A stretch of 58,416 nt of DNA, from positions 1-58,416 of the forward strand of contig JABANN010000167.1 in the NCBI GenBank assembly GCA_013115125.1, in the 5' to 3' direction. Origin of the DNA: Perkinsus olseni. Its lineage: Eukaryota. The notes beneath the pieces are model-generated. The model had not been told where the DNA came from. It did no database searches and saw nothing but the letters and a program-made list of their open reading frames with translations. Below are positions 11,054 through 31,586 of this stretch, piece by piece. Position 1 is the stretch's first letter. Each line of letters starts with the position of its first letter. The position numbers and the translations under genes are program-made.

Positions 11054-13612
11054 ATGTCATCTACATCCAACGGGGACCAGAAGGGTCCCAGCCCACCACA
11101 AGCACTTTCTCAGGGAGAGGCGATGAAGGGGGGAGGGGATGAGGATGGAGCTGCCAAATCCAGTGTGGTTTACATTCAACCGGTGGAGGATGGCCTCAGT
11201 CTACCTAAGCTGCTTTTCATGGAGAAGGAGTGGAGGTAAGCTCCCCATACCCGCCCTGGCTGAATGGAAGTCGGTCTTTGGTAGCTGGTCTTCGTTGGTT
11301 GTGAACATCATTCGGACACTGGGGGCCTCCCTCGAGCGGGACTCCGAGATAGATGCCATCTTCCCAGGCCAGTACATGATCGATGCCTTCAAGAGGAATC
11401 TAAGTGTAACGACGACGTCGTTAGTCGAAGGTCGCTGCAAATCTGTTGTTCTTTGCTCAGCTCAAGAACGAGCAGGATGCTAGTATCTTGTGCGAAGAGC
11501 TTGCCAAACTCGACCTCATCATGGTTAGAACTGATGGAGTGCACGAGGTAAAGATACCCCTCCCCCGGGTGGCACTCCTCCTCTCTTCAGAACGAGAGGT
11601 TCGATCCTGAGTACGACTACAGCTTGGTCTATCACCTCAAGCCGCACGTACGAATTATGCAGTTTCTTAGGCTTCCACGGCTCATCCTGTGACAGGTGCT
11701 CAACTCAGTGCGTTTCGTTCGCTCTGGTACTCCCTTCGAGGTCTGTGGTGTGGACGAGGCCGTAGCTCAAATGCAGGACGTTATTGTGAAGCTGACGAAG
11801 CGGATGAATCGTCTGAAGGTCGGTGAACAGCGGTCTTTGTTAATGTCACGGGTTGTTTGCTCTCTCAGGGTTTCTACTCTAAACTGGATGACTCCGAAGT
11901 TCTCGTCACCGACTGGCTTCTGCTGGCCGAGGATCCGGAGTATCTTAGGTCGGCTTCCTTCCAACGCAAGAGTCGCTGGATTCGTTATCACAGGTTTCAA
12001 GAGTTGACCTGCATGCTACAAGTCATCTGCGGCAGCTCTGAAGGGTCCGCAGATTCTATTCTTTTTAAAGTGGCCCAGGAGCGGCCTGAGTAGGATGCTT
12101 GCGGTCCTCCGTCGCCTTATGTCCCCTTAGGTTCTGGCGTCGCTTCACGATAGCCCTCTACCATCTGATGGTGGACCATGCCATGGCTGATCTTGGAACA
12201 GTGGCAGCCGATGCACCAACCTACACACGCTGGGAGTAGCATGCCCCTGGTTCGATACCTGTCGGGCTCACGGCTGTCATCTTGATAGATTCTTCACAAG
12301 TGTTAGCTATGATGTGGGAGGCTTCCCACTTTCTCTGCGGGACATCGAGCACGCTATACTGCGAGGGAACCAGTACCCTCCGCCGGGGGAGCTCCTGCGG
12401 GTCATGGGAAAGGACGACCCCAGAAGAGACTTTGTACTAAGTAAGCCTTCTCCCCCTCGCTCAGCTCTTAATATTCCTCCCAGATCCAGTCTACGCCGAC
12501 CCGCGAGTCCACTTCCTGCTCTCTTGCGGGGCCAAGAGCTGCCCTCCTGCTGTGTCTATTGCGAGGATGAACGACGGTAAATGGGAGTCTGTGGCTGCGG
12601 AAGCCGCTAAGAATTTTGTAAGTGTCTTCATTTCTACCTAGATCAGCGCCAGTAGCTCCTGTTGATGCAGGTAACAGACGAGAATCAAGTCCGATACGAC
12701 GCCGACAGCAACGTCCTTTACCTCAATAAAATATTCAGTTGGTACAAGAAGGACTTCGGGGGCACTGAAGCCCTGATGCTACTCAACATTCGAAGGTCGG
12801 TAATCTACGGCCTCCGATTCTACCAACCTCGGACAGGCAGCGGCAGTGGCGATCAGAACTCGCTCGTCGCTCGCGTTGGCCATCCACATCGTTAGGTACG
12901 CGGGTGAGGGCTGGGAAGTCGCGGGGAAGATTGAGGGGAAGACTCCCAAGATCAAGTACATGAAGTACGACTGGCAGCCACACGCCTCCAGGATAAAGGT
13001 CGGCAGACGCTCTTAGACACACACCCTTGTCATTTCCTCGCCTCAATAGACCTACTCGCCGGCCAAATCGGACGCCAACGCTTTCAAGATGATCTCCTCC
13101 TACCTCAAGACCAGTTTTGGCAGGCCAACTTCCCGGACACGGTAAGCCGCTGGTTGCTGTTTTATTCAGCTACGTCAGAGTGAGTCGGCCAGATACGCAG
13201 AGATCCGGCAAGAGCGTCGTGAGCTGGAGCCTTTGGAGAAGAAGGCTGCCGAAGAGTTGGAGGCGCGAATGAAGGAGATACAGGCGAAGAACGAGAAGGC
13301 TAGAGAGGAGACGGTGAGGAGAACATCCAAGCGCTTCTGGATCCATCGGCTTGGGCTGGTGAAACCCGCTGACTCTGCCGCCTTCAGGCGCGTAAGTTCC
13401 AGCTGCAAGTGGAGAAGGCCAAGGCTAGTCCGGACGGCGCGGTGGTCGTACGGTCTGAAGAGGTGGGCTTAGCTTCAAACAAGAAGGGAGAAGGGGAGGA
13501 GAGCAAGAATGATGTGGCACAGGGTGAGGGGGGGGGGAGCTCAATGGTCGGGGTCCTGCATTTCAAGATTTGTTGTGATACCTCAGATACTCCGGCGCCG
13601 CCCAAGGAATGA
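11054..13612 (+). CDS. DUF547 domain protein with possible DEP-like N-terminal domain and coiled-coil tail, multi-exon
   Basis: Motifs YHLMVDHA, YDVGGFPLSLRDIEHAILRGN, DPRVHFLLSCGAKSCPP, LNKIFSWYKKDFG, IKYMKYDW are typical of DUF547. Stop is either at 13016 or, via further splicing, at 13612. Confidence 0.8.
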
Positions 13613-15200: not shown

Positions 15201-17657
15201 ATGACCGACCATCACTCCCCGAGACGTTGTCCGGGCGAGGCGGGAATAGGGGTAGGTGTCTACAGGGCTCCGTGCTGAGGACGACTCCGCTATGCTTCTA
15301 GACTACGCCCCTCCAGCAGCTCTCACGGTTGGCGTGTAGCAATCTGATGCAGGGCCTCCTCGGCGCGATATCGGCGGTGGACGGTATTCGGGTAGGTCGT
15401 CAAAACTCGTAGTAGCTCACAGTACCTCGCCGGCAGGCCCGATTGACCTTCCCGCCGTCTCTCCGAGATGATGCCTCGACGAAGCTAGACAATGACGCAG
15501 TGGACGGTGATGACACAGATTGGATGATGAACGAGCTCATATTCCTAGAGCAGACTCTAGCAGTGAGCTCCTCTATGATGAGCACGCGTGCCATCGCCCT
15601 ACTGCCTGTCGCAGGACCATGCATTAGCGGTGTCATCGCTGACTGATAAGGTCAGAGTCCTGCTGGATATCTCGGAAGACCGTCATTATCATCATCACCT
15701 ATCATCGCAACAGCCCAACGGTATGGCAGGACCTGCTCACAGCGTAATGCTACGAACTGCCGAACCCGAAGAGTTAAGTGTCTACTGCAGGTATCTGACG
15801 TGAGTCCTGTTCTCGAGAAGTCCAGCTGCGAGGTTCTCAAGTCCACGACCCATGATAGGAAGAGCGCAGCGCCACAAGTACTCAACCCGACCGCTCCCTT
15901 CGCTGTTCGAGCGGCTTCGAGCTGCTTGGTCTGATATCTACTGTCGCCAGGTCGGTGAAGGCTGCCCGGCGCTAGGTAGAGGACACAGGGCCGATGAGGA
16001 AGGTGAGAGGTAGCTGACGAGGCTTCGTAGCAAGAGCGTATGCCTTGACAGGGATCCCGGCCCCGCGGCTGAGTTGTGGTGACAACTCCCCCGCCAGTAC
16101 AGTCATTGTCATCGACGACGAGCCTCCAGTGGAAGAGGCCCCAGCACCGCCGCCGCCCCGTCCACAAGCGTCGCCGGAAAGCTCCCATGAGTCTCATCCG
16201 CCGGAGCCTGTTCGCCTCAGCAAGGTGCGATTGGTGAATTCATCGTGCCCTGTGGCCACTGGTGCGTAGAACATCTCGCAAGTACTCCTTTAGGCAGCCA
16301 AGAAGCGTCGTCGAAAGGCGAGAGCTAGGCAGCGACAGCGAGCGATCATGGAACTCGTGAACCGGGAGAAGGCGGGCGAAGATCTTAGTGAATTCGAAGG
16401 TTCGTTCTCGTGTGCCTTCGGCAGTGCTGCTAGAGTGTCCTTCTTAGTTGACGTCCTGGAGAGCTTCCTGAATGATGAGGTTCCCCTTCCCCCCTCTGGC
16501 CTACCGCCGGAGCTGCTCAGAATGGCCAGAGAGCTGTGCGAGGAGTGGGAGCGGCAGCAGGTGAGACTACACCGGCGTACGTTCCACAACCCTGCGGACT
16601 GTCACAGATGCAACAGGAGGACAAGCTCGAGGAAGTAGAATACTTCATGATGGATCTCGCCGACGCCCGACAGATCGAGGAGGGGGCGGCGGCCCGGCGC
16701 AACGGAGTGCCGACCGACGCAACGGGAGCTCCTGACCGAAGACAGCAGCAGTAGGGAGTCGCGCCAGTGCCGGGCATTTCCGATGCGGCATTTCTCAGGA
16801 TTCTTCCTTCGGCAGCACTAGGCGTCCCCGAGCCCGCCATCAGCCGGCCCTCGACGTCATCGCATTTGCCTGCTGAGGATGAAAATCTCACGGCAATTGC
16901 TGATGCCTCTCGCGGTGAGTCAGGGTCCGGTATTATATATCCTCATGACCGCGGTGGGAGAGCATCCTCCGAGGCTCGAGGGTCGCCTTAACTGTTGAAC
17001 CTCAGGAGGGATACCAGTCTGGAACGAATGGGAGACGCTCGGGCAAGTAGCGTGGAAGATTGAGGACATGCTAGAGGAGGTCGTCCCGCCTCCTGCAGCG
17101 ACGAAGCGCGATCGAGTAGGTATCATTCCACCGGCTTCCGTGGAGTACCACTACTGCTGGTCAAAGTGAGCTTCCCTCAGCCCAGCGGCATCACCGATGC
17201 GCGGCCGCCGAGGGTTCGCAGGGCCGGCTCAGGAGAGATGAAGATTGAGATACGGCGGACGTTGAAGGCGGTTAGGGAAGGTCACTTCACGCGATGCTGT
17301 CGAGCCTCTTCAGGCCTTTGCTTCCTCAGGTGTTGACAGCCTACCGCGGCGGCCGTCAGCAAATCAACGATTACTCGAACTGCGATCGGTGAGCGTAGAA
17401 TGTGAACACGGGGAGTAGTATGGTTCGTGTTTTATTGCTGACAGGTCATGGACTGCCTCGAGGACTCCATGTACAGTGCAGGAGAGAATGATCCATCCGC
17501 TCCTCCTAGGGCTGTCGTGGATATGTTAAGAGCTACTTTAGAGAAGATGTGGCCGCGGTCGAGCGCCCAGAATGAGTGTCGACCGTCCTCGGAAAGACGA
17601 CCTCCTCCTAAACGGCGGGGGCGGACAGGCATCCGTGAAATAATCATACCCGGATAA
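15201..17657 (+). CDS. Multi-exon hypothetical protein
   Basis: Consecutive plus-strand protein-like exons bounded by GT/AG (e.g. WMMNELIFLEQTLA, VDVLESFLNDEVPLPPSGLPPELLRMARELCEEWERQQ, EDKLEEVEYFMMDL). Start and end uncertain. Confidence 0.45.
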
Positions 17658-17983
17658 TCCGGTTTCACCCCTGGCAAGTTTACTCACGTTATCTCGATAA
17701 GAATACATTATAGCTACTCATCGTTTCATGTCGAGTAGTTGTGGTGTTGAAGGCAAAGAGCCGTAGTCGAGGGCGCTCTGGGAGGGACACAGACACCGTC
17801 AACGCTCGAAGGGATCTTGCTCCGCTGCAGTGTAGCAGCACCTATCCTCGCTCCGAGGGAACCGAATTGAGATATAACGTATCAGTCGGCACTCGGCTGG
17901 TTAATCCACAGTCGATACATGTGAGTGTTCGCTCTCATTACTCATCATAACACAACACGACTCTGAATGTCAATGGTACAAGC

Positions 17984-18859
17984 TTAGACCGCGGCCCTTA
18001 TTCTTCCAATCTGCCCGGGACGGGGCTGGGAATTATTCAACCGAGGAGCTAGAAGGGCAGTCTCGGACGGCTTTGGAAGGCTCGTAGTGCTGTTCGGGGC
18101 TGATGCTGGGGGCTTTGCGGAACTTGCGGCTAGGTCTCTCCAGCTAGGTGGACGCGACTTACCGAGCTGAGAATTGCCGCCTACACCGAGACTTTTGATA
18201 CCGGGAACTCGCCGTGAGGGTGTACCGCTGGTAGAACATGGGCTCGGAGATGTTGCGACGCTCGTCGACTTCAATGGGCGATCCGTCGATGGATCATATG
18301 CAGTAGCAGCTGATGCTCCGGATGTCCCCCTCTTGAGGGTGTCCTTCACCTCTCGCTCGATGTTCGCGATACGCTCATCCATCGCATGCAAATCTGCCAG
18401 TATCCGTTCGCTCTCCACCGACAGCCGAGGCGCTGCCAGGGTCCACTCGGGTTGGCCATCCTCGGGTCTCGCCGACCGCGTAAGATACGGAGACAAGTCA
18501 ACATGACATTCAGGCAGCTTCTTCTGTTGAGGAGGTGACCGATAGTTCCCGCTAGGGGCCGAACCGGTCGTCCTAGGAGGGGACGGAGTCGAAGAGACGC
18601 AGCCTTTATTGTAGATCGACCTTGGTCGCTCTCGCGGTGCATCGTTCGGTGACAGCTCGACGGTAGGCGTTGACCGCATATGGCGAGGGCTACCATTTAG
18701 AGAGGAGCCTGGCGATGACCGTCTTTGTTCCTTTACAGCGGCAGTCAACCGGCGTAGCCTATCTTCGATACGCCGAAACCTCTGCTGGTAAACGAGTGGT
18801 AGACGACTTGGCGGTAGCCTGTCACTGAGATGGGAGAAATCATCGACTGCGGGATCCAT
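17984..18859 (-). CDS. Hypothetical Ser/Pro-rich protein with short coiled coils
   Basis: 346-aa ORF (17984-19024). Likely start is MDPAVDDF at 18859, because the upstream ATG overlaps the stop of the RAP gene. Coiled-coil-like RFRRIEDRLRRLTAAV and LHAMDERIANIEREVKDTLK. Confidence 0.6.
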   Translation of the reverse strand: MDPAVDDFSHLSDRLPPSRLPLVYQQRFRRIEDRLRRLTAAVKEQRRSSPGSSLNGSPRHMRSTPTVELSPNDAPRERPRSIYNKGCVSSTPSPPRTTGSAPSGNYRSPPQQKKLPECHVDLSPYLTRSARPEDGQPEWTLAAPRLSVESERILADLHAMDERIANIEREVKDTLKRGTSGASAATAYDPSTDRPLKSTSVATSPSPCSTSGTPSRRVPGIKSLGVGGNSQLGKSRPPSWRDLAASSAKPPASAPNSTTSLPKPSETALLAPRLNNSQPRPGQIGRIRAAV

Positions 18860-19020
18860 GAAAACCGAAGAACAGAACCCTGGAACACAAGTGCCGACAG
18901 ACGGTCCAATCCTCCCCGATCGCCGCCGCAAGCCGAGCGAGCATTCAGCCGAGAAATGCATGAACAAGAGCCAGCTCTTCCTCAGATGTCCCCCAATGAT
19001 AACAGCGCAACAACTAGAAT

Positions 19021-21563
19021 TCATGCCGAAACAGGTTTCAGAAACACGGCCTCCTCGCCCTTCAGCGTTGCGGTGATCTCCCTTCTCAGCAGCTCTCTAC
19101 GATTGGGACGAAGAGTGGACTTCCATGAATTAGTGTCGATAGAGAGGAGCTGATACCCCCGCAGCCTCACTATCCGACGCAGCAGCTCAGTCTTCCCGTC
19201 CTGACCTAGTCGCCGAGAGCCATCGCTCTCAACACAGTGGACGAAGTGAGCCGCCCCGTCAGCCTCTATCAGCAGCTTGGGCTGCCTCGTCGTCTTGTCG
19301 ACCAGAGCAAGGTCACATACAACGCCGGGGACATCCGACGACAAATCATACTCGGATACCACCTCCCAACGAGGATAGAGATCGCTTACGAGAGGCACGA
19401 GCTCTCTCAAGACCTCATCCTGGAAGGAGCTACTGACGGGCAGCGCACTGCTGGTCGCCTCGGCTGCAGCCCTGGCCGCTAGGTCGACCTCAGTCTGGCC
19501 ACGGAGTCGGAAGTTGTGCTGGGCCGTTGCCCATTCAACCGCCCTGTACAGACGAATGAGGGCTGCGGATTGTAGGGAGACTGTTGCGCAGCGAGCTAAG
19601 ACGTCGCGCAGGAATGTTTCGTCGAAGAGGTTGAGAACCGCCATGGACCACACCAGCACCGGTAGATCATTATCAGGGAGTTCCGCCATCACCCTCTCAC
19701 CCATAACTTGCCGGAGAACTCCACGCGCAGCTTCGGTTCGATGGGAGTTCGACGCGACTGCCCAAAGGAATACCGGTAGATGACTGTAGTCGCTGGTCGT
19801 CGACCGTTGTCTGAGCACCCTTGCAGCCAGCGAACAACACTTCTCCTGGAGCTCGTAGTGGGACAGGCGGAGCGTAGCAAGAGCCCACACAATAGAGGCG
19901 AGGTCAGCAAGGTCCACGTCTGATGCCCCTACCTGGCCCCATCGGCTGGCCACTGCATCAGCGAATCTCAGCGCTGCCTCCGGGAACTCGGAAAGAACTT
20001 GGCGAGGGCTGGTGGCATTAGCGATACCCCGCAGTATGCTTCCCGCAACCTGTGGGGTCAGATGCTCCGCCCTGGACCCCACCCAGTCGGCGATGGCGAC
20101 CACTCGAGCCTGTGTGCCGGGCACTCGTGACAGCGGCCCGACCAGCTTAGACACGCCTCTCACGTCAGCGTCAGTCCACTCCGCCTTCAAGCCTCTAACC
20201 TCTGCTATACAGCTGACCAGTCTCGGGAAATCCTGGCTGAGCCCTAGGCCGACGATGCCCGACAGGATTGGGGCTTGGACTTGAGGCCGCGCCGTAGACA
20301 AGGCGTCCCGATCGACTTTCGTCAAGAGGACCGAAGCAAGCCTCTTGACCTTAGGCGAAGGGCCAGCAAGACTTGCCCAGAGGACGCTGCCGAGGACGGG
20401 CAAGGGTAGGGGCTCAGGGCACTTCACTACGGTGTTGTTGAGGGATTCGAGCAGATGGTCAAGGCCTCGAGAAGCTGTTGAATGACACCCAAGGAGGCTC
20501 CCCACCGCCCGGCTGAGGTTCGCTAGCAGCTGGGGATCGAAGTCCTGCTCCTGGTCTTCCAGTAGGCTGATGATACGCGTGATGACGTCCTCCGGAAGCG
20601 CCTTCTGACGCTTAGCGTGGGCAGTAACGAGCGTAGCTAGATCGACTAAGCCGACTTCAGTAGCATCCACATGGCCGATGTCGGCGCCCGGTTGCGGGGT
20701 ATTGGGACCGCGGAGGATGCGTGTCTGTGCTCCCACAATCTGGGACTTCTGATGATCGTTGAAGGCGGACATATAGACCCGCCGGGTGAATTCTTGAAGC
20801 AGACCGACGACACAGGGCTGACCATCAAACATGTAGCCCAAACTCCTCATAACGACGATGTGACTGGCAGGCTGTATCGGCTCGCCTGCGTTGCGGATCC
20901 TCCTCAACCAGTCCGAGGCCAAGGCCGCTACAAAACCAGCGTCTGTCCCACCACATTTGGCAACACCGTAAGCTACATTAGCAACAGCGGCGGCCGGCAT
21001 CGACTCAAGCCCTAACCGATCCTGGCAGTGCCGGGCTATAAGTGTCATCTCCGCGGCCCAGGGCAACTCCAGTCGGCCGATGGACTGGGCGATCTCGCCA
21101 AGAGCTCGCCCTTGAATCCTCGACAAGCTGTCCTCGTCGATTCTGCCCCTCAGGACCGCACAGAGGCCATCGACGGCATCACGGTTGGCCTTGACGAATT
21201 CAGGACTGTGTGCGAGCTCCCCGAGAAGCTCCCGGACGAGCCTGATGTTGGGCGGCCTTTCTGGGAGGATTTCTGTGAGGTTTCTGCAGAATCCTCGGGC
21301 CGAAAGTAGACTCTCGTCGCCGCCTCGACGCAGAGATTTCACCAACTTCTTCTGAATGGTGTACTCGTAGCCTCTCGGGAGGTCGGCAGCTACCGACGGG
21401 CGAGAACCTGCGAGAGAGAGGAACGGAGCTGTCTTAAGCACAGCGTGATGAACGAGCTGCTGAGCTCACCTGGCTGCCGAGCTACAGCTGTCGAGAGTGG
21501 CCTCATCGCTGACAGGAGCGCGTTCCGTGAGGAATTGGCTGAAGGGAGGAGGGGAGAAAGCAT
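19021..21563 (-). CDS. Helical-repeat (FASTK/OPR/HPR-like) protein with C-terminal RAP domain, copy 1
   Basis: 806-aa ORF plus first exon MLSPLLPSANSSRNALLSAMRPLSTAVARQP joined in frame through intron 21469-21408 (gtgagc...tcgcag). C-terminus SSFQDEV...EY...CDLALV...LIEADGAAHF...GKTELLRRIVRLRGYQLLSIDTNSW is a RAP domain. Confidence 0.9.
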
Positions 21564-21657
21564 CGAGGGCGGGAATAACGACTTCACTGCGAGGGATTTA
21601 CCAATGCTTTCACCTGGTAGAGGTACCATAACACAGAGAATGAAGGGCTCAGAAACG

Positions 21658-24188
21658 TCACATTGATTGCAGAAACTTTTCTTGTGGTAGCAGTCGAGCC
21701 TTCACAATGGACTCAACATACTCCTGACGACTGTTCCGATCCAGCCGCTTCCAGTGAGTAAAGCAGATCTCTTCAACGGGGTACCCCAGCCGCCTTAGAG
21801 AGTTCCGCCGCATCACGGCCTTCCCACATAAAGTATGGCTCGACCCTGACTCCTTGCCTACACTGCGGACGTAGTGCGACGGTCCATTGGCCTCGATGAT
21901 CAGTACAAGCTGCTGCTGCTGATGGTGGTGTTGAAGCCCATCGGTGACTTCATGACGAACCACTGCCAAGTCAACAATAACCCCTGGACATCCCAGATGA
22001 GAGAGGTCCAGCTCTGGGACCACTCTATAGTCGTCGTTGCTGCCCATTGCCCGTCTTATGCATTCAGTAACCTGGTCCTGGAAGGCGCTATCGACAACAG
22101 TGGCCTCGCTCCGGGCTGACTCTGCCGCTCTCTGAAACAGCCCGGCTACCATAGGTGACGGGTCGAAGCCGTGCGAGGACGACCACAGGGAGACCTGGTT
22201 AATCTTCTGTAAGGCAACACCATCAAGCTCAGCCGTAGCTGCTGCCGATAGTAGCACATCTAGCACTCGCCGGCCGAAGACGTCCAAGGCTGCCAGAGAC
22301 CACGCCACGTGGAAAGAATCCGCCGCCACGAAACGATACTTTCTGGAGCAAACCTGGGCTACAACTTCCTCTATCAGTTCATTAGCATAATTAGAAGAAT
22401 GGCAGTTGGAGGCGAGACCCCATAGGAGCATAGAGAGGTGGGCGCTGCTGATGCCGGGGCCGAGCAGGAGCTCTCTGGCCTCGTGGCAGCACTGCTCTTC
22501 AAGCACTTGGTGGGAGAGTCGTAGAGTGGCTAGGGACCACGCAACCAATGCTAGCTCTTGCTGGTTGAAGTGGAAAACGCAGTCAGGACCCTTCGCGGAG
22601 GCATCGAGAAACTTGAGGAGGTCGGCAGAGTCCCAAAGGGAACCCTGCTGGGCCTCAGGGGTTGAAGCCGCGCACCACAACAGCTTCACGAAGGCTTCAG
22701 TGTTGGCTCCCCTCTCGGCGGCCCACTCCAAGAGGGGCTGGACATCTCGGAACGGTCGTCCGGCAATAGACCAAGCCAGTTGCCCCACGGCGTGGATGTG
22801 GGTGGCGTCAGCTGGCCACTCGTAGATGCTCTCTCGCACTCTCTGTAGTGCGCTATTGACGAAGGAATTCTCCAAGGCTTCCAGGCCTCCGGTCTGGGCC
22901 AAAGCAGCCATGCAGACAGCTAGGTCTTGGGCTGTGTACCCTAGGATTCGCTCCGGGGTGTGGGGCAAGAGGTACTCGGCCGATGCGATGACCTCGTCTC
23001 TACTGAGGAGCAGGGCTGCTGACCAAAGAATGTTGGAGACCTCCTGCGGAGTGAACCCTCCTTGGCGAGCCTCCAAGACCAGACCCATCAGACTGCCCAC
23101 CAGACAGGCAGCTGAGGATTTCACCACTTCGCCATGCTGCTTCGTCAACGTCGCTGATGCCCAGCAGCTACTAGCAATAGTCTGCGTAGAGACACGCCCT
23201 CTCTGGGCAGCTCTCAGCGACGCCATCGCGACCTTGAAGATCTCATCATGAGGCGGTTCCGTGGCGACATAGGCGTAGCCGGAGAGTACCGATGCGCACT
23301 CTCTAATGCCGAAGTCAGCTAGCAGACCCGGATGCTCCCGAGCCTTCGAGAAAAGCTCTGTCACGTAGGGTGCATCAGGGGCGAGCTTGCCAAGTGACCA
23401 GAAGATCATCGCCGTTGCTGATGCAGGCACAGTCGCGACACTACGCGACAGCCACGTTGCTGCAGCCTCGCGGAGGAAGGCTTCATCGCGGACACCGGTG
23501 CGTGCAGCGGCCCAGCAGATATTGGACACAACTCCCCCAGCGGTACTGCCAACACCAAGCCCAGTCCGGCACTGTAACATCACATGGCGGACCTCCTCGT
23601 GCCAGTCTAGGTCCAGCTTCGCTATAGCGCATGCAACGTTGCTGAGTTGGCTCGAGGAAGCACTGTCGAGCAAAGGTGTGATGGAGGGCCTCAGCATGGT
23701 CAAGAGGCGGGCGCGTGAGGGAGTGGCCCCTCCGGCCATACCGATAGACCACAGAGAATCCGCCACTTCATTGATGGTTATACTAGTAGACTGCAGAGCT
23801 TCTGAGAGTTCTTCACATAACGCATCGACAAGGTCGGGTTGAGTATTGTGGAAGTGCTTGACTAGACGGTGCAGCGACGTGGCCAACAACTGCAGGCGGT
23901 GGGTGGTGGGGCTTGGGCCAGGGGGAGGGAGGGCTGCTTGCTGGCAGATGGACAGTACGTCTGAGAGAGGGCCGATGGGAACAAGGAAGCCGACGGAGGG
24001 ATGACGAGGAGCTCACCAGACTTCTTCTTATGTCGACTGGCGTCCAGTAGGACCTTCCGCAGCTGGAAAGGGTCGCTGATAGTTGAAGGGCGAGGCCTAG
24101 TGGCTACGGTAGCGGCTGCCGTAGCAAATTGCCGAGCCGATCGCGAGAGGGCACACCGTCGGACGGCTGCGGACGAGGTTGACGCCAT
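21658..24188 (-). CDS. Helical-repeat protein with C-terminal RAP domain, copy 2
   Basis: 743-aa ORF plus first exon MASTSSAAVRRCALSRSARQFATAAA...KKKS joined in frame through intron 24016-23961. RAP motif VDLAVV...IIEANGPSHY...MRRNSLRRLGYPVEEICFTHW. Confidence 0.9.
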
Positions 24189-24321
24189 AATGTCTAGCTG
24201 CAGGAGGGAGCGATCGAGGGCCAGCAGCGTGGGAGGCTGCAGATGGAAGAGTTCCTCCTCAACCCGAAGCCTTTAGGGAGACGATGAAACGGTGGCGATC
24301 AGAAACACTGCAATTTTGAGC

Positions 24322-26799
24322 CTACGCTGCAACGTCTCGCAAGAGGTCCGCTAAGAATTCACCGCGGCGATGGCGTTGGGTGTTGTTCCACTCGACTGTG
24401 CTGATGCTGAAGACCTTGTAGCCAGCCTTGCTGAGGATACGCCGACTGAGCTCGGTATTGCCATTGTACTGCAGGACAGCCAGCCTGCCGGCGCCAATCA
24501 ACTGCGAGAAATGGGAGTAACCGTCCACCTCGATAATGGCCAACACTCGGCCCTCAGCGTCAAGCAAGGCAAGGTCGACAAAGATTCCCTCCAAGGGAGG
24601 GGGCAGCTCGTACTCATCGCGAAGAATGACTGCTGGCGCCATAACGGGGAGTACCCGTTGCAGCTCGGATCGGATCTCCCACTGCAAGGTGCTGCTACTA
24701 ACAAGGCCACCGCCCGGCGCCCTCTGTCGTCGGGCGATCTGCATCAGTTGGGCTTCCTCGCTGGCTGTAGGCTCGAAGCCATGGCAGACTCTCGCCCACA
24801 GAAGGGATCTATGAAGTCTGATAAGTGAGGCCCCTTGCTCCGTCCTTGGAGCCGCACTGGAGACAGGCCCCGCTCTGGCTAGTGCCTCTAGGAGATTCCG
24901 CAGTGCCTTCTGACTGTAGAAGTCGAACACAGCCATGGACCAGATGACTATGGTTACGTCTGCTTTGCGAGGCCTGAAGGTGCTGCTCTCGACTCGGTCC
25001 ACGACAGTCCTAATTAAATCGATGGCAGGCTGTGATCGGTGTGAATTGGATGTGATACCCCAGAGGACCATAGCTAGATGGCGGCTGTCGATTCTACCGT
25101 CCATCAGCATGCCCCTCGCCAATACACAACATCTCTCCTCCAACTCATAATGGGATAAGCGTAGCGTCCCCAAGGCCCACACCAGCAGGGCAACATCTTG
25201 CTGTTGATACTGATGACCATCACGAGAGCGGTATTGGTCAGCGAGGCCGCTAACGAAGGCTACAACAGAGGCCGGCGGCTCCCGCAAGGCGGAGGACTCG
25301 AACATTCTGGCAGTCGCCCAGAGTATCCGACTTTCACTTTGTGGTGTGAGCGCATCCACATTGGCGACGGCCCAGTCAACGATAGGCATCATAGTCCCCT
25401 GACCAGTGGACCATTGGGCATTTGAGATCTGTGAAACGGCTAGGATGTTCTGAGCCGTCGGCCGCCAACCGCGGATGTTGTCGACAACCACCTCAGTGGC
25501 TGCGCTGGTGAAGGCTGGAAACGCGGCCAAGAGTTTGGCTTCTGTCAGGGAGCTCAGCACCGTGGCAATCTCCAGGGGCTTCCAAGCTTCGGCGAGGCAG
25601 CTTCCGTCGATGGGGAACTGTTCATTCGACAACAAGTGGCGGAACACCCGTTCCACCCACGGGTCGCCGTCGCTCGCCAAACCAACCGCCCAGGCGATGC
25701 TCGAGATGGCCCCGCTGGTGAAGCCGTCGAGGCCAGTGTTTACTATCAGTTCCGCTAGGTGATGAACGAACGCTAGTGGAAGTTGTGAATCAGACTTACT
25801 CGACTGGGCGACAGAGCCGGCGGCCCAGAACGCATTGCCGATGCTGTGTAGTGGGCATTGCCTGATGGTGGACTCGTCGAACTTGGCGATGCAGATCTTC
25901 CAGACCCGGGAATCCAAGGTTGATGCCGTCATATGACCGAAGGCCCAAAGGACCGACGCTAGCTCGCTTGTCTTGAAGTTACCCAAGTCCAGCTTCGACG
26001 AACACACATCGAACAGACGTACGACCTCTGGCTGGTTCCTGGCTGTTGCACCAAGTGACGAGAGCACCAGAGCGTGGGCCTCGGCGCTGACGCCGGGCCG
26101 CCCTACACGACCCGCCCAATCCACTGCAACTGCACCGGTAAATCGCTCGTTACAGCCGCCCATACGACTGACGGCCCAGACAAAGGTCGCCAGCTCACCA
26201 AAGCCAACCGAGGCCAGGCCAACCCGATCGAGCATGGTGTTGATGGCCATATTGATCTCGGCATCCCAAGGTAGGGACAGCTTGTTGATGGCCCAGGTAA
26301 CGTGGCGTAGTTGGAGTGGACCCATGTCCGGTATGGTCGCCAGCAGGTGTGGACGGAGTAGGTCTCTTAGTCGTGCAACTGCGGTCGGGGGGGACCTGCC
26401 CGCCACGCCGATCGCCCTCATAGTTTCGCCGAGGCGCTTTGGCGAGAGCGCAGAGACGTCGGTTGAGTCTCCCTCTTCCAGCCGCTGAGCCATGGACTCG
26501 CTGAGAGTGGCGAGAAGGGAGAGCTGCCGTGGGTCCTTCGAAACCTTCACGCACTTGATGAGAGCCGCAGCCAGCAGTGTGAATTCGACTCGGACGAGGG
26601 AGGCCGGGCTGTTGAGGATGTCCACTATCGCGGTGCAGGCCTGGAGCCAGTTGTCTGAGGGGAGTGGCCAGGATCGGACCCGGGGCAGGATGGTGCTCTC
26701 ACCTCGACTGCCGGAACTCAACAGCCTTCGGAGATCTTTCACTTGTCGAGAGGCGACTTCATTCGTCACCGCACAGCTGAGCAACCGACCAACATGCAT
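24322..26799 (-). CDS. Helical-repeat protein with C-terminal RAP domain, copy 3
   Basis: 825-aa ORF with a probable in-frame 48-nt intron at 26702-26655. RAP motif FVDLALL...IIEVDGYSHF...NGNTELSRRILSKAGYKVFSISTVEW. Confidence 0.92.
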   Translation of the reverse strand: MHVGRLLSCAVTNEVASRQVKDLRRLLSSGSRGESTILPRVRSWPLPSDNWLQACTAIVDILNSPASLVRVEFTLLAAALIKCVKVSKDPRQLSLLATLSESMAQRLEEGDSTDVSALSPKRLGETMRAIGVAGRSPPTAVARLRDLLRPHLLATIPDMGPLQLRHVTWAINKLSLPWDAEINMAINTMLDRVGLASVGFGELATFVWAVSRMGGCNERFTGAVAVDWAGRVGRPGVSAEAHALVLSSLGATARNQPEVVRLFDVCSSKLDLGNFKTSELASVLWAFGHMTASTLDSRVWKICIAKFDESTIRQCPLHSIGNAFWAAGSVAQSSKSDSQLPLAFVHHLAELIVNTGLDGFTSGAISSIAWAVGLASDGDPWVERVFRHLLSNEQFPIDGSCLAEAWKPLEIATVLSSLTEAKLLAAFPAFTSAATEVVVDNIRGWRPTAQNILAVSQISNAQWSTGQGTMMPIVDWAVANVDALTPQSESRILWATARMFESSALREPPASVVAFVSGLADQYRSRDGHQYQQQDVALLVWALGTLRLSHYELEERCCVLARGMLMDGRIDSRHLAMVLWGITSNSHRSQPAIDLIRTVVDRVESSTFRPRKADVTIVIWSMAVFDFYSQKALRNLLEALARAGPVSSAAPRTEQGASLIRLHRSLLWARVCHGFEPTASEEAQLMQIARRQRAPGGGLVSSSTLQWEIRSELQRVLPVMAPAVILRDEYELPPPLEGIFVDLALLDAEGRVLAIIEVDGYSHFSQLIGAGRLAVLQYNGNTELSRRILSKAGYKVFSISTVEWNNTQRHRRGEFLADLLRDVAA
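25011..25205. repeat. 195-bp near-identical direct repeat, copy A (inside RAP copy 3)
   Basis: Matches 27588-27782 with 7 substitutions counted by eye. Confidence 0.95.
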
Positions 26800-26886
26800 A
26801 CCAAAACTTTCCCAATCTATCAGACAACGAGGAACCAGAGGCCATTAACCAGTACTCAACAAGGCACACGACGGTCACTCAGAAAC

Positions 26887-29325
26887 TCATCCCGGAAACA
26901 ACTCCCTCGAGTTGAAGGCATCGGAGACCTCATGCCGGATGAACTCAAACCTGTCTGCCCGGTCCATGCTGCGCCACTTCTCGTCCCCTACACAGAGTAG
27001 CCGGAAGCCAGCCTTACGAATGAGTTCATGCTTCAGCACACTCTGACCGTTGTACTGTCTACCGGACACTCCCGATGCACCAAGGACGCTGACATAATGA
27101 TGTGGCCCGTCTACTTCTACCAGGAGACCTCGGCTGCCAGTCCGGCCGTCCACAAGGGCAGCATCAACGACCAGACCTGGCAGCTCTGGCCCAAGGTCAA
27201 CCTCGGACATGACTTGAAACCCGGTGCTGGGCCACCGGGCTAGCACTCTATTCAAGGTCCGGCAAACATCCGTTTGAAATGCCCCTTGGGCGTCGATGCC
27301 CGACATCTGAGCCTCCTCGAGAGCCTCGGCGATGAGACCAGTTTCCTGCGGAGTGTGCACGAAGCCATGGCAAAGTCTAGCCCACAGGTAAGCCCGGTGG
27401 ACCTTACTCAGGCTGGCCCTCCTCTCCGCTGCCAACAGCTGACCTGAGCCAGTGGCAAGGACGCTCAATAGGTGGCGGAAGACAGCTTGATCATAGACGT
27501 CCGAGGCAGCCATGGCCCAGAGGACAACAGCGACGTCCGCAACGTCGAAGGAGATGCCTCCCCTCTCGACCGCCGAGACGGTGTCTTTAATTAAATCAAT
27601 GGCAGGCTGTGATCGGTGTGAATTGGATGTGATACCCCAGAGGACCATCGCCAGATGGCGGCTGTCGATTCTACCGTCCATCAACATGCCCCTCGCCAGT
27701 ACACAACATCTCTCCTCCAACTCATAATGGGATAAGCGTAGCGTCCCCAAGGCCCACACCAACAGGGCTACATCTTGCTGTTCTAGACGCTCGCTACGGC
27801 CATCGAGGAACCTCCTGGCCGCAGCACAGACCAACAGAACGACTGAGGACGACTGTTGCCCAGCACAGGCCTCCACCACCCCATCACACTTCGACGCTGC
27901 CCAGAGTATCCTGCAGAGGGAACGGAGTCCAACTTCATCAGAATTGGTAGTAAACCAGTCAACGATCGCCTCCATCTCCGGGCCGCCCTCCGGGACCATC
28001 GTCCAGGCCACTTGGGTGAAGGCTCGGCCGTTAGCCGCGGTACCGGGGGCTATCTTGGCCGCGGCAGCAAAGTACTGACGTGCTGCCGCCACGAATTCTG
28101 GAAGGCTGTCCTTGAGCCCCAAGGAGCATACAGCAGCGAGGGTGTTGGCCAACTCCAACGACTTGAACTTGTCTATCGTCTCTCGTGATGAATTATCAGC
28201 CAGCAAGTGCTTACAAAAATCGCCAACCCAAAGACAGTCTTGGTTGGCAGCTAGGGAGACGGCCCAAACCATGTAGCTGACGCTGGAGGGCTGGAAGCCT
28301 CGCACACTACCGAGGACGACAACCTGGGCCATCTGACGGATGAGCTCCAACGGGAGGCCGCTGCTGTGGCAGTCGTGGGAGAGTACACCAGCAGCCCAGA
28401 AGGCGTATCCAATCGTCTGTGTTGCGCAAGCTCCGACCCCGTCCGCGGACAAGGCACCCAGCAGAGACTTCCAGATGCTCTCACTCGGGATTATGCCACC
28501 ATTGTTGGCATACACCCAGAGGATCTGTGAGAGCTCAGTGAAGGTGAAAGTGGAGTAGTCAAGGCTGTTGTTGGCAACTCGAAGGACCTCGGTAATGACG
28601 TCCTTGTCCGCGGTCTTGCCGACTGCAAAGACCACCGCTGCATGAACATTGGACTTGAGGCCTCGCTGGCCTTCCACTCGCTGCCTCCACGAAGCAGCCA
28701 TCGACTTGGCGAAGGCTTCAATCCTCCAACTCGAGCTAGCAATAGTCCTAGCGAGGGACGCCAGGGCGAAGTCACTGAGCATGTCCAGCCGGCGGTCCAA
28801 GCGGTCCAACAGCAGCTGCACCTCCACCCCTAATGGCTCCTTCAGGTTACGCAATGCAGTGATGGTTCTGTGGATCTCCTGCAAACTCATCTGTGGGGCC
28901 ACGGACGGTATGCGGGCCTTCAAGCCTTCGACGAGCCTTCTAATGGAGGGCCGATGAGGCTTGCCAGCCGAGGCCAGCGAAACCAGCGCTGCTACTACTT
29001 CGCTGGACGGTATTTCTTCTTCTGCCGAGCACAGGCGCTCAGTGGATGCCCAGCAGAGAGCATCGACTGTCTCCGCCACCACACTGAGTTTGGTGGAGGC
29101 AACAGCCCGTCCGGCAGCACACAGAAGGTCGGCCGAGAGGGCCGATCCCGACGATAGGAGCTCTCGGCAGACCTCTTCAAACTCTGAGAACGGCATTGAC
29201 TACTGAAACGAAGCACATGGCCCCTTCCTACCGTGCTTGTCCGCATCGACTATCCGAGATCTCAGATCGCTTTGACGGCGAAGCTTTTGACGAGCAACAG
29301 CGCTGAGACGACGAGACGGGCGCAT
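26887..29325 (-). CDS. Helical-repeat protein with C-terminal RAP domain, copy 4
   Basis: 769-aa ORF plus first exon MRPSRRLSAVARQKLRRQSDLRSRIVDADKH joined in frame through 48-nt intron 29231-29184. RAP motif VVDAALV...LVEVDGPHHY...NGQSVLKHELIRKAGFRLLCVGDEKW. Confidence 0.9.
27588..27782. repeat. 195-bp near-identical direct repeat, copy B (inside RAP copy 4)
   Basis: Matches 25011-25205. Confidence 0.95.
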
Positions 29326-29881
29326 AAGAGACAAACTAAACGGAAGGGGTCACGGCTTGACGAGGGCTCAGCAACCAGCATGCGTGGCTCGTAGCCACAC
29401 TACGAGAACTATTGTGTACGGCAACAGGACGCTGTCAACATACCATGAGAAGCATCACCCGACCCTGTCGTATAGGGAATTATCAACTCGAAACATGATA
29501 GTGTCTAGGGAAAGAACAGCAACTGCTACGACGATGGTGAACATGACACAACGTAGCAAGCAGCCAGTAAACAGTGCGCATATTATAGCTTCCCGTTAAT
29601 TGGGGTGTAGGCCTCACCTCAGCGGCCTACAACGACGAGGACAGCAGCCTTTCTATGAGCTCTCTCGCTCGCCCCATCGTTCTTCCTTCGCGCGGTGGTC
29701 ATTTTCCATCCCAGTAGGGATAGTTCGGCATCTACCTAATACATGAGATGACGTGTTATCACTGAGGAGTCAACGATTGAAGGTTGGGTACTAAGCCCGA
29801 GATTAAAACAGCTGTGACTAAGCCAACGATTGCCTCAGTGTTGACGACCTGCCCAATTGAATGCCTACTAGACACCTCATC

Positions 29882-30784
29882 ATGAGAGCTTCGGCTGCCG
29901 CCGTCGCTGCATTCATCCCACACCTACCTCTCAGCCACGCGGTACGCGGCACCAACCTCCCCGCTGATGTAAGGACGGGTAAATGACGATGTTCCTAGTT
30001 TAGTAGCAGTAGAAGGGGCTGGCAAGTGTAGCGTAGAGAAGCGATGTTGCACACCAATGACTGAGTAATGGCATGTTGCTTTGTTAGGACTTCCCTCTCC
30101 GAAACCCCACCACTACACGGTTCGACCTGATGAACAGCACTGCTGTGTGTGCGTACCACAATGGGGACTACGCCTCGAACCATACAGCATCATTATTCAT
30201 CCGAGTTGGAAAGAACTCCGTGCAGACTGACTACGTCCAATGCCCCGCTACCAAGGCCAGGAGCTCATTCTCACTTGGGTGGGGGGGATATGCTAGGCAG
30301 CAGCAACAGCACGTTGATCTGACCATTCTTCAGTTACTGGGGGAATCCCGCCGTTCGCAGCCATGCCTCCCATCGCCCACATACGGTCGACACTCATCGA
30401 TATCCTCAGGGCCCACCTCCCAACGAGGGCTTGGATCCCCTTAGAAAGCTAGACCAGTCGGGCCTTCGCCAAGAGCTGGAGGGCCTGTTCAAGGCTGCTA
30501 CCCGTGTATCACACGGTCTTACACCGGACAACGCGGTTATATTCGAAGCCTACATGGACAAGGAGCCCCCTGCTAGACAGAGAGTGATTAAGCATCTCCA
30601 AAGCATCTGCTCGGCCGAGCTCACTGCCATGAAGAGATACTTTGTTAGTCTGAGGAAGTTATGCGATGAGTATTACACAGCTTACAGGGCATCCAAGAAC
30701 GCTGCTAAACATGAGGAGTGGGTTTTCAAGGAGTACTTGCCTGGACACTATGAAGTGGTCCCTTGGTGGTGGGCTTCCCAATGA
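29882..30784 (+). CDS. Probable secreted hypothetical protein, 3 exons
   Basis: MRASAAAVAAFIPHLPLSHAVRGTNLPAD | DFPLRNPTTTRFDLMNSTAVCAY...SFSLG | YWGNPAV...GLDPLRKLDQ...WWWASQ* splices in frame; signal-peptide-like start. Confidence 0.55.
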
Positions 30785-31586
30785 TGATTAGGTCATGTTC
30801 TGATGTAAACTTCATCGCCGACGGCATCATGGTGCCAATGATGATAATGATGTAATTGTGTAGTTGTGTGCAGCGGCTCGGTTGTTGTGTTCATCGCCAT
30901 GGAATATCTTCACTCCCAGCGTTCCCTTCGGACAGCGTTCTCCTCCCTACCAACCTACCCGTATTCCGTCCACCTCGATAGACCGCCCCATCCTCACCGC
31001 CCCTCAGAGTGCTACGATCGCCGAGGCCCTGAGCAGCCTCCCACTTACCTAGCCCTATCTGAATCACTTCCAGTGTCCGGTATCACCGACTAGCGATAAA
31101 CGCATTGTTCGAGGGTCGCCCAATCCGACTGTAGATCTCGCACGTTCACATGTAACCACGACCACGATCGAACCAGCGTTAGATGAGATCTGCTATGTTT
31201 CATCGCCTGTCAACGACGAAAGCACGATTCTGATGTCGATTCAGTCCCGCGGTGTGCCGGGCCACGACCGTTGTGCCACTCGCGTGCCAAGAGAGGGTTG
31301 CGTCACCATCTCCCCCATATTCCCTTCCTATCAGTAACATGTTAATAGCAACCTACATTGACTAAGATAGCGCCTCCCCTGGGACCCTCGGCAGCCCTTG
31401 ACAACGGTTTGACGATTGACATCCGAGTCGGTCCACTAGAACCATCCCCCGTCGTGGTGTCACCTGAGACCACACGGGTATCAGAAAAGACGAAGGAATC
31501 TACGACCGATTAGTGTCTGGAAACTCGACTCAATAGCGAGGGGAACGCAACCACACAGGGTTCGTGGTGATGCGCCGAATCGTTGG

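Follow-up and report, generated by a model that had tools for sequence, protein, structure and literature searches.

A conserved tandem array of helical-repeat and RAP-domain genes in Perkinsus, candidate mitochondrial RNA-binding factors

The closest described counterparts of the genes reported here encode alveolate proteins that join heptatricopeptide repeats (HPR) to a C-terminal RAP domain, namely PfRAP01 and PfRAP21 in Plasmodium and mRSiC and the mitoribosomal RAP proteins in Toxoplasma. HPR proteins are described as binding organellar RNA (PMC6212722), and a lineage-specific HPR protein of Toxoplasma is reported to stabilise particular rRNA fragments (bioRxiv 10.64898/2026.01.22.701003). 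Perkinsus mitochondrial DNA, as described in PMC9550989, carries three mRNAs together with fragmented rRNAs. The proteins of the array that we analyse are new members of this known helical-repeat and RAP family, which handles mitochondrial RNA in related parasites.

The array lies on a contig (JABANN010000167.1, assembly GCA_013115125.1) of Perkinsus olseni, a parasite of shellfish; the window is the whole 58,416-nucleotide stretch that was analysed. We consider it probable, from the combined analyses, that the four proteins bind RNA in the mitochondrion, each at targets of its own, and there define or protect the ends of transcripts, and that they work as free proteins rather than as ribosome parts.

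Gene models and domain architecture

Four co-oriented paralogous genes, g1 to g4, occupy positions 19021-29325 on the minus strand. Their stop-to-stop open frames, 19021-21465 (814 codons), 21658-24012 (784), 24322-26844 (840) and 26887-29199 (770), bear out the four co-oriented genes of about 780-840 aa that the first-pass annotation had placed in this span; at 58.5% G+C, a frame of 770 codons or longer would arise by chance with a probability of about 2e-12, and the longest frame elsewhere in the window, array excluded, is 370 codons. The gene models, built here and compared with database proteins (Table 1), predict proteins of 826, 824, 825 and 796 aa for g1 to g4, and the model of g4 is identical (100%) to the annotated KAF4668147.1. 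Joining the g1 exons yields an in-frame N-terminus like that of the P. chesapeaki orthologue, with a second possible in-frame ATG at 21506. The description of the genes as almost intron-free also holds, as each has at most one tiny intron near its 5' end (48-62 nt, GT..AG in 3 of 3); the accompanying claim of an intron-rich genome was only weakly checked, by the shortness of the other open frames in the window and by few Pfam hits covering parts of domain models.

Table 1. Positions of the array features within the window
Feature	Positions	Strand	Remarks
g1 exon 2	19021..21407	-	open frame; stop codon 19021-19023 included
g1 RAP match (Pfam)	19114-19269	-	14.9 bits, under cut-off; core residues kept
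g1 intron	21408..21469	-	62 nt, GT..AG; model made here
g1 exon 1	21470..21563	-	proposed ATG 21563
g2 exon 2	21658..23960	-	open frame; Pfam RAP match 21709-21897, 34.4 bits
g2 intron	23961..24016	-	56 nt, GT..AG; agrees with N-termini of P. olseni proteins P0004, P0152
g2 exon 1	24017..24188	-	ATG 24188; N-terminus presequence-like
g3 single exon	24322..26799	-	825 aa; Pfam RAP match 24352-24534, 39.0 bits
g3 alpha/beta domain (residues 725-825)	24325-24627	-	from structure model
g4 exon 2	26887..29183	-	open frame; Pfam RAP match 26932-27120, 32.6 bits
g4 intron	29184..29231	-	48 nt, GT..AG; takes out in-frame TAG 29200-29202
g4 exon 1	29232..29325	-	ATG 29325; arginine-rich N-terminus
195-nt tract, g3 copy	25011..25205	-	covers the two repeats conserved best (residues ~533-597 of the protein)
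195-nt tract, g4 copy	27588..27782	-	counterpart of g3 tract
GTTTCTGA	19038..19045	-	within final codons of g1
GTTTCTGA	21649..21656	-	1 nt past g2 stop codon
GTTTCTGA	24299..24306	-	15 nt past g3 stop codon
GTTTCTGA	26879..26886	-	immediately 3' of g4 stop codon
GTTGCTGAG	29367..29375	-	one-mismatch variant of 8-mer; 42 nt upstream of g4 ATG

The long run of helical repeats proposed for these proteins is recovered both by a repeat profile and by an AlphaFold model of g3 (pLDDT 89.3, pTM 0.85), which is the one paralogue of the four that was modelled. In it, residues 49 to 720 form 35 helices, for the most part at a pLDDT over 90, arranged as two-helix hairpins stacked into a solenoid and followed by a sheet domain, and the motif-bearing helices of the model start 37-47 residues apart, with no strict spacing of 37. 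The homologue consensus (70 and 132 sequences) displays a series of about 10 units, each 37 aa long and of the form FxPQxxxNxxWAxA. A clade-specific repeat profile, whose consensus reads TPQELANVLWAAASLGH..., finds 3, 11, 8 and 7 units in g1, g2, g3 and g4, and the canonical alveolate HPR profile (521 units) gives only 1, 2, 0 and 1 domain hits at i-E <= 1e-3. The repeats appear to be of a degenerate heptatricopeptide (HPR, FASTK-like) type. An octotricopeptide repeat (OPR) identity, which had been among the options to check, is not supported: OPR proteins are characterised by units of 38-40 aa bearing PPPEW (PMC6212722), and a PPPEW-like motif is absent from all four proteins. Structural searches with the g3 model retrieved as best matches Toxoplasma mitoribosomal RAP chains, trypanosome RESC proteins, algal and ciliate mitoribosome proteins, FASTKD4 and PPR10.

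A RAP domain had been claimed at every C-terminus, and three of the four proteins (g2, g3 and g4) pass the Pfam gathering cut-off of 24.2 bits for RAP (PF08373); g1 fails it, although its sub-threshold alignment runs across the RAP core and retains the conserved E, D, ExD and H residues. In g3 numbering, D742, E757, D759, G760 and H763 are each shared by 90% or more of 70 homologues, and the D...E-x-D-G-x-x-H core is kept across 11 aligned array proteins, g1 included; the g2 haplotype in the window carries N at the second conserved aspartate, which is D in another P. olseni allele. A model of the RAP region alone (g3 residues 690-825, pLDDT 90.4) matches, in Foldseek, RAP modules (Toxoplasma chains and FASTKD4) and PD-(D/E)XK enzymes (I-Bth0305I, EcoRI, 3ijm, 1wdj and 3hrl), at E-values that are weak (best 6.8e-4, with one match at or below 1e-3). 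The modelling shows a restriction-endonuclease-like alpha/beta fold for the C-terminal RAP domain, and the expected combination of an alpha-solenoid with such a domain is what the g3 model contains.

The predicted fold and the acidic residues fit PD-(D/E)XK nucleases, and the RAP domains may cut RNA because the conserved acidic and histidine residues are retained; we hold such cutting to be possible but doubtful, and a role in binding RNA or a partner at least as likely as catalysis. The further proposal that the array proteins are site-specific endoribonucleases, whose repeats position the RAP domain so that it cuts precursor transcripts at defined sites, seems to us unlikely. To our knowledge, myzozoan mitochondria lack tRNA punctuation. 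They import their tRNAs, as described in PMC9550989, and this, the nuclease-like fold and the persistence of the D, E, D and H residues across Perkinsus orthologues are in line with the proposal. Human FASTKD5 is reported to cleave non-canonical junctions comparably and to cut its substrates in vitro, but its cleavage needs no metal, and D429 is the residue reported as essential. Nor is nuclease activity general among RAP proteins, since FASTKD4 is reported to have a Vsr-like fold without activity; the Toxoplasma RAP proteins are structural ribosome parts, and the N of g2 stands at one of the conserved acidic positions.

Probable association with mitochondria

The organellar association first proposed from sequence gains support from the P. 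marinus complexome, in which the orthologues of g3 (PMAR007492) and g4 (PMAR007493) both occur in the two mitochondria-enriched replicates (PMC13623125). PMAR007492 peaks in slice 23 of 60, at about 86 kDa; PMAR007493 peaks at about 114 kDa in replicate 2 and is found at about 95 kDa in replicate 1, with its largest single value at about 321 kDa. Both tags are missing from the whole-cell table, and among the rows listed in the supplements no g1 or g2 orthologue appears under neighbouring locus tags. The enriched fractions are reported to carry contaminants, for example the proteasome (PMC13623125), so detection is not proof of a mitochondrial location.

These profiles also bear on the idea that the array proteins are integral or assembly-stage parts of the mitoribosome, serving as 'joint' proteins for fragmented rRNAs like Toxoplasma mL136, mL138 and mL147, which we regard as distinctly unlikely. 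The closest solved structures and several strong profile matches are mitoribosomal proteins of Toxoplasma, Chlamydomonas, Polytomella and Tetrahymena, and Perkinsus rRNAs are indeed described as fragmented (PMC9550989). Although the complexome authors report many uncharacterised proteins that co-migrate with the mitoribosome, and PMAR007492 gives minor signals in high-mass slices 46 and 54 of replicate 1, the published profiles place the g3 and g4 orthologues near monomer size, at about 86-114 kDa, with no co-migration with the ~2 MDa mitoribosome, as against slices 58-60 for mL136, mL138 and mL147. The three RAP proteins that the authors' list of homologues assigns to the mitoribosome, with peaks in slices 58-60, are encoded elsewhere (PMAR018084, 012803 and 029454; PMC13623125). 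The co-migration argument is not decisive because factors that are held loosely could be lost during detergent extraction in 1.75% beta-DDM.

It is very unlikely that the proteins act outside the mitochondrion, whether on RNA or DNA of the cytosol or nucleus or in a genome-less relic plastid. Apart from the contaminants in the enriched fractions, this reading draws on the DeepLoc 2.1 label 'Cytoplasm, soluble' for the g3 orthologue, a call that is weakened because the P. marinus gene model is truncated at its N-terminus, lacking the first ~132 residues; the same predictor labels PMAR007493 'Mitochondrion, mitochondrial transit peptide' (table S9, PMC13623125). Both locus tags were moreover found in the enriched data and not in the whole-cell table, the strong relatives with solved structures are all mitochondrial, and acidic residues are absent ahead of position 40 in g1 and ahead of position 39 in g2, where the first one stands, with S, T or A making up 22 of the first 40 residues of g2.

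Conservation of the array and a proposed role

The paralogues are as strongly diverged from one another as first described, at 26-33% pairwise identity, and each has its own orthologues. In P. chesapeaki these are FOL47_001637 for g1 (54% identity over 812 aligned residues), FOL47_001636 for g2 (56%), FOL47_001635 for g3 (57%) and FOL47_001634 for g4 (58%), four genes that are consecutive on one contig in the same order as in P. olseni; P. marinus has at least g3 and g4, as PMAR007492 (72%) and PMAR007493 (70%), consecutive on one contig. In a tree that also includes the 39 closest homologues from outside the array, 13 array proteins form a single clade (SH-aLRT 100), and every paralogue has orthologues in at least two species; scores inside the clade are at least 517 bits, and non-Perkinsus proteins reach at most 134 bits. 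On this phylogenetic evidence the array is a Perkinsus-only clade that arose by local tandem expansion, as had been proposed, and it stands apart from apicomplexan RAP proteins rather than being related to them as one-to-one orthologues. The tandem duplication would have preceded the split of the living Perkinsus species, each copy having since been retained as a distinct gene.

It is scarcely credible that the array is duplicated DNA in decay, or a product of faulty annotation or assembly, and lacks four distinct functions. The orthologues largely refute this reading: despite the fusions of 2401 and 1418 aa predicted in other P. olseni assemblies and the very degenerate repeats of g1, all four frames are uninterrupted, every gene has counterparts in other species at 54-72% identity and in the same order, and orthologue conservation is even over the full length.

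Orthologue identity is level along the whole protein (mean 0.57), whereas paralogue identity is 0.19-0.29 over the N-terminal ~510 residues and 0.30-0.49 over the C-terminal ~310. Conserved orthologues combined with divergent N-terminal tracts of the paralogues fit conserved but distinct binding tracts, and we infer that the repeat tracts may set RNA specificity. Two features were absent from the first-pass annotation, a shared tract and an 8-mer. The tract, of 195 nt, is common to g3 and g4: its copies are identical at 188 of 195 nt, with sharp edges, and it is under concerted evolution in all three Perkinsus species. Our literature search found no paper joining 'RAP domain', 'tandem' and 'gene conversion'. 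The 8-mer GTTTCTGA recurs at the 3' end of each of the four genes, and the spacers next to its sites are just 87-133 nt long.

Each array protein, at ~800 aa, is predicted to combine a short presequence-like N-terminus, a solenoid of ~13 degenerate HPR hairpins and a C-terminal RAP domain. If the array proteins are indeed mitochondrial RNA-binding factors, each would be imported into the mitochondrion. Each repeat tract would then recognise its own short segment of mitochondrial RNA, be it a terminus of the cox1, cob or cox3 mRNA or one of the fragmented rRNAs, and the bound protein would define or protect that RNA end as a free, transiently bound factor rather than a fixed ribosome part. A link between the array and programmed frameshifting is pure speculation.

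Comparison with known systems

Among solved structures, the best profile match of the array family is RESC6 (3.5e-48), a trypanosome RAP protein of the RNA-editing substrate-binding complex, and the match covers the repeat tract only, about 410 positions (profile positions 72-482). We know of no counterpart in Perkinsus of the kinetoplastid editing complex to which RESC6 belongs. The OPR proteins of Chlamydomonas and the green-algal mitoribosomal helical-repeat proteins, of which mL115 of Chlamydomonas gives a profile match of 2.3e-40, resemble the array proteins in their alpha-solenoid and in the binding of organellar RNA that is probable for the array, and some of them also carry RAP. The conserved motif of the array proteins is of the HPR-type WA.A in place of PPPEW.

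The human FASTK family (FASTKD4, FASTKD5) shares with the array the order of targeting sequence, HPR-like repeats, FAST-like region and RAP domain, and FASTKD4 (chain 9gek_A) matches by profile at 1.3e-16 and by structure at 3.8e-5 with the full model and 1.5e-3 with the RAP domain alone. The FAST profiles suggested for checking gave a different result, as Pfam FAST_1 stays under its cut-off of 27.4 bits (13.0 in g1, 11.4 in g2, none in g3 and g4) and FAST_2 has no match at E up to 1 in g1-g4. The repeat tract of the array is much longer than that of the FASTK family, and the two are not orthologues.

The alveolate HPR-RAP proteins are among the best structural and profile matches of the array, the Toxoplasma RAP proteins matching by profile at ~3e-31. 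Unlike them, the array clade is found only in Perkinsus, has degenerate units spaced 37-47 residues apart and forms a conserved four-gene tandem with a concerted-evolution tract, and, unlike the Toxoplasma mitoribosomal RAP proteins, the g3 and g4 orthologues do not co-migrate with the mitoribosome. Common to both are the helical-hairpin solenoid, the N..WA.A-type motif, the C-terminal RAP domain, nuclear encoding, lineage-specific expansion and an association with mitochondria, which in the array concerns two orthologues.

The gene array and its predicted fold

The region 19021-29325 holds four long minus-strand open frames (g1 to g4 by rising coordinate), in agreement with the first-pass annotation, which had read four co-oriented long genes there. 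At the window's base composition, chance would give an open frame of 770 codons with a probability of ~2e-12, and the longest frame elsewhere in the 58-kb window runs to 370 codons. Comparing the frames with database proteins and reading the junctions in the sequence gave the gene models tabulated below, in which all three introns have GT..AG borders and the spacers from stop to next ATG measure 87, 133 and 94 nt; the start of g1, our own model, is the least certain of the four. By exact look-up the g4 product is KAF4668147.1 (FOL46_002134) of Perkinsus olseni, and database names for the array proteins are 'hypothetical protein' or 'RAP domain-containing protein'. Pfam gave no RAP match in 138 further ORFs of at least 90 aa, which puts the size of the array within the window at exactly four genes; Rfam gave no match over the entire window. 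Three short ORFs match parts of Pfam domains only, as exons of intron-split genes flanking the array would.

Two further observations concern annotation of the locus. The fifth minus-strand frame in the table is Ser/Pro/Arg-rich and has no Pfam match; its initiating ATG shares bases with the g1 stop codon TGA (ATGA), and it may be a gene of the same transcription unit. In other P. olseni assemblies, gene predictors have read through the spacers to give g4+g3+g2 or g3+g2+g1 as single proteins, among them the database entries P0152 (2401 aa) and P0154 (1418 aa, partial) over window positions 21658-29199; given how tightly the genes are packed, these fusions are likely annotation errors.

Coordinates of the array genes and associated features (window positions)
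Feature	Position	Strand	Details
g1 frame, stop-to-stop	19021-21465	minus	814 codons; model 826 aa
g1 exon 1	21470-21563	minus	
g1 intron	21408-21469	minus	62 nt
g2 frame, stop-to-stop	21658-24012	minus	784 codons; model 824 aa
g2 exon 1	24017-24188	minus	
g2 intron	23961-24016	minus	56 nt
g3 frame, stop-to-stop	24322-26844	minus	840 codons
g3 single exon	24322-26799	minus	model 825 aa; no intron
g4 frame, stop-to-stop	26887-29199	minus	770 codons; model 796 aa
g4 exon 1	29232-29325	minus	
g4 intron	29184-29231	minus	48 nt
Fifth frame	17984-19024	minus	346 codons from ATG; 370 stop-to-stop
Tract, g3 copy	25011-25205	minus	195 nt
Tract, g4 copy	27588-27782	minus	195 nt
GTTTCTGA	19038-19045	minus	at g1 stop
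GTTTCTGA	21649-21656	minus	at g2 stop
GTTTCTGA	24299-24306	minus	at g3 stop
GTTTCTGA	26879-26886	minus	at g4 stop
GTTTCTGA, one mismatch	29367-29375		42 nt before g4 ATG
GTTTCTGA, fifth exact copy	1736-1743	minus	ends a 56-codon minus-strand frame; its TGA is the stop
Short ORF, Na_Ca_ex	7028-7378	plus	domain positions 64-127 of 151 only
Short ORF, DUF547	12191-12577	plus	domain positions 38-89 of 125 only
Short ORF, Pif1 2B domain	39289-39840	plus	domain positions 15-45 of 47 only

A RAP domain had been claimed for all four proteins; g2, g3 and g4 score above the Pfam cut-off, and g1 is sub-threshold (14.9 against 24.2 bits). Of the families named with it, FASTK membership is not borne out by Pfam, where FAST_1 lies far under its cut-off and FAST_2 is absent, and OPR identity is rejected for lack of a PPPEW-like motif in all four proteins. 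Among 1.84 billion representative proteins, a profile built from the four paralogues picked out 1861 relatives at E <=1e-3 and only 10 at <=1e-30; the six top matches, which lie within the group, score at least 517 bits and the next protein 134, and those of the six that were looked up are Perkinsus proteins. In the homologue consensuses (132 and 70 sequences) a 37-residue unit, FxPQxxxNxxWAxA...L, recurs ~10 times in tandem ahead of a closing RAP core, D...IEVDGPSHF. These units are degenerate in the Perkinsus array proteins: a canonical HPR profile (521 units from distant homologues) matched g1-g4 in few places, and a clade-specific profile built afterwards recognised 3, 11, 8 and 7 units in g1, g2, g3 and g4. 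Tandem Repeats Finder reported no arrays in window positions 17000-31000, so the repeats seen in the proteins do not stem from recent repetition of DNA.

For g3, the AlphaFold model (70-row alignment; pLDDT 89.3, pTM 0.85) has the anticipated alpha-solenoid, with 35 helices predicted across residues 49-720 and a mixed sheet domain after them. Its top PDB matches include Toxoplasma mitoribosomal RAP chains, trypanosome RESC proteins, algal and ciliate mitoribosomal proteins, FASTKD4 and PPR10, and the sequence-profile matches are concordant with these. Modelled on their own, residues 690-825 (pLDDT 90.4) fit the predicted restriction-endonuclease-like domain, matching RAP modules and PD-(D/E)XK enzymes, I-Bth0305I and EcoRI among them, at weak E-values. 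Five RAP residues (D742, E757, D759, G760 and H763 in g3 numbering) are near-invariant in the wide family and retained in the array proteins, save for N in place of D759 in the window's g2. That g2 core (~21790-21800) reads IIEANGPSH, with Asn at the second conserved Asp; Asp stands at this position in the P. olseni allele P0004 and in the orthologue from P. chesapeaki.

Array age, paralogue divergence and the g3/g4 tract

Orthologues of g4 and g3 occur in both P. marinus (PMAR007493, 70%, and PMAR007492, 72%) and P. chesapeaki (FOL47_001634, 58%, and FOL47_001635, 57%); those of g2 and g1 were found in P. chesapeaki (FOL47_001636, 56%, and FOL47_001637, 54%) and not identified in P. marinus. 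The four P. chesapeaki tags follow one another directly along a single contig, so the array and its gene order are older than the split of these species. In a tree made by a quick method from the four window proteins, nine orthologues or alleles and 39 of the 40 matches ranking next (P0008, a homologue of 1612 aa, was too long and left out), all 13 array proteins group in a single clade (SH-aLRT 100), as expected of the local expansion first proposed for this locus; the same quick method gives branching of g2,(g1,(g3,g4)) within it.

The paralogues are indeed strongly diverged: over the first ~510 residues their identity is 0.19-0.29, and over the last ~310 it is 0.30-0.49. P. olseni and P. 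chesapeaki orthologues are evenly similar along their length (mean identity 0.57). The repeat tracts are thus, at the level of sequence, kept within each paralogue line and different between lines, which is the pattern that separately maintained binding specificities would produce, short of proof. As to variation within P. olseni, the alleles P0157, P0160 and P0004 from other assemblies share only 91-94% protein identity with the window's g4/g2, which points to strongly divergent haplotypes or strains.

One segment of g3 and g4 departs from this divergence. Over a 195-nt tract the two genes are identical at 188 of 195 bases and in all 64 encoded residues, so that the seven nucleotide differences are all silent, and identity drops to ~45% at both tract edges. 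Within a 65-residue window covering it, g3 and g4 differ by 1 residue in P. olseni, 0 in P. marinus and 2 in P. chesapeaki, and the same paralogue compared between species differs by 6-7 residues (P. olseni against P. marinus) or 22-25 (against P. chesapeaki); in the flanks, g3 and g4 of one species have only 17-22 of 58-65 residues in common. Species-specific changes common to both paralogues imply that gene conversion has been ongoing on the tract in each lineage, and from these comparisons we read its history as repeated, localised conversion in three species. The tract spans the two best-conserved repeats of the entire clade, and a plasmid search with it was uninformative, returning no match. 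It offers a tidy case of conversion limited to 195 nt in genes that elsewhere have about one third of their residues in common.

A common 8-mer at the gene ends

The 8-mer GTTTCTGA occurs five times in the window against 2.0 expected, and four of the five copies lie within 16 nt of a RAP-gene stop, one per gene and in three reading frames relative to the stop; the fifth may be chance. Read by eye, a pyrimidine-rich stretch with a terminal AG lies 22-35 nt past each copy. The motif GTTTCTGAG, with one mismatch allowed, has 22 matches in the whole window against 15 expected, a number reached in 8 of 100 shuffles, and so is not a general signal there. The 8-mer may serve trans-splicing of the gene that follows, as branch point or acceptor, or may signal a 3' end; the available part of a spliced-leader paper (PMC9399869) does not mention acceptor or branch motifs. 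Together, tight spacing and a common 8-mer may inform how closely packed Perkinsus genes are expressed.

Location, candidate functions and relation to known RAP and HPR families

It is an open problem how scrambled myzozoan mitochondrial genomes yield dozens of rRNA pieces as well as defined mRNAs. Suspicion falls mainly on HPR/RAP proteins, and targets are known for few of them. Evidence for location comes from the text and tables S1, S4, S5 and S9 of a P. marinus complexome study (PMC13623125), in which the S9 header (10.9 to 2790 kDa), the mitoribosomal peaks at slices 58-60 and the SDH subunit PMAR005841, which peaks as the text's SDHA/SDHB do (60-120 kDa and near 900 kDa), agree that slices ascend in mass. 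There, both PMAR007492 and PMAR007493 (the g3 and g4 orthologues) appear in both mitochondria-enriched replicates and are missing from the whole-cell table. PMAR007492 peaks at slice 23 (~86 kDa); PMAR007493 peaks near 114 kDa in replicate 2 and in replicate 1 lies at ~95 kDa, with its largest single value at ~321 kDa. For PMAR007493, DeepLoc 2.1 predicts a mitochondrial location with a transit peptide, and for PMAR007492, whose gene model lacks the N-terminus, a cytoplasmic location; the RAP proteins that the study places in the mitoribosome come from other genes, and the neighbouring tags 007489-007491 were not found in those supplements (PMC13623125). In the window, acidic residues are absent before position 40 of g1 and before position 39 of g2, and the N-termini of g3 and g4 are arginine-rich.

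The array proteins are best read as four RNA-binding proteins of HPR type that are mitochondrial and differ in their targets. They would work as free factors, defining or protecting the ends of transcripts, a role proposed, in the portions available, for lineage-specific Toxoplasma HPR proteins (bioRxiv 10.64898/2026.01.22.701003) and for the HPR family generally (PMC6212722). A nuclease activity carried by the RAP domain, with its predicted endonuclease-like fold, is possible, although what the available sources hold on FASTKD4 and FASTKD5 does not support it. A structural role in the mitoribosome, such as several of the top structural matches have, is less likely because of the migration data. 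Any link to Perkinsus frameshifting (PMC9550989) is speculation.

Beyond free RNA-binding factors with distinct targets, a fuller model can be drawn, which as a conjunction we consider improbable: Perkinsus-specific factors, each recognising one mitochondrial transcript class (cox1, cob, cox3 or rRNA pieces), would cut or cap transcript ends in a mitochondrial genome without tRNA punctuation, the converted g3/g4 segment would be a common docking surface for one partner, and the array would be expressed together as a unit, possibly a polycistronic one, with the conserved GTTTCTGA as the element at which its members are released.

The locus brings together four related yet distinct members, conserved across species, and these, with P. 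marinus proteomics for two orthologues, make a natural comparative set, suited to asking whether repeat sequence sets the RNA target and whether the RAP domain cuts RNA. In the papers found on Perkinsus and the RAP domain, only three Perkinsus RAP proteins are assigned, all of them to the mitoribosome; we found no paper joining RAP domain, tandem and gene conversion, and the term 'tandem' is absent from the accessible text of the RAP phylogeny paper. The alveolate RAP expansion, with 19 RAP proteins counted in P. marinus, is already published, as are lineage-specific HPR expansions (bioRxiv 10.64898/2026.01.22.701003), and the array proteins are already annotated in databases as RAP-domain proteins; what appears to be new beside these is the conserved four-gene array, the Perkinsus-only clade, the conversion tract and the flanking 8-mer.
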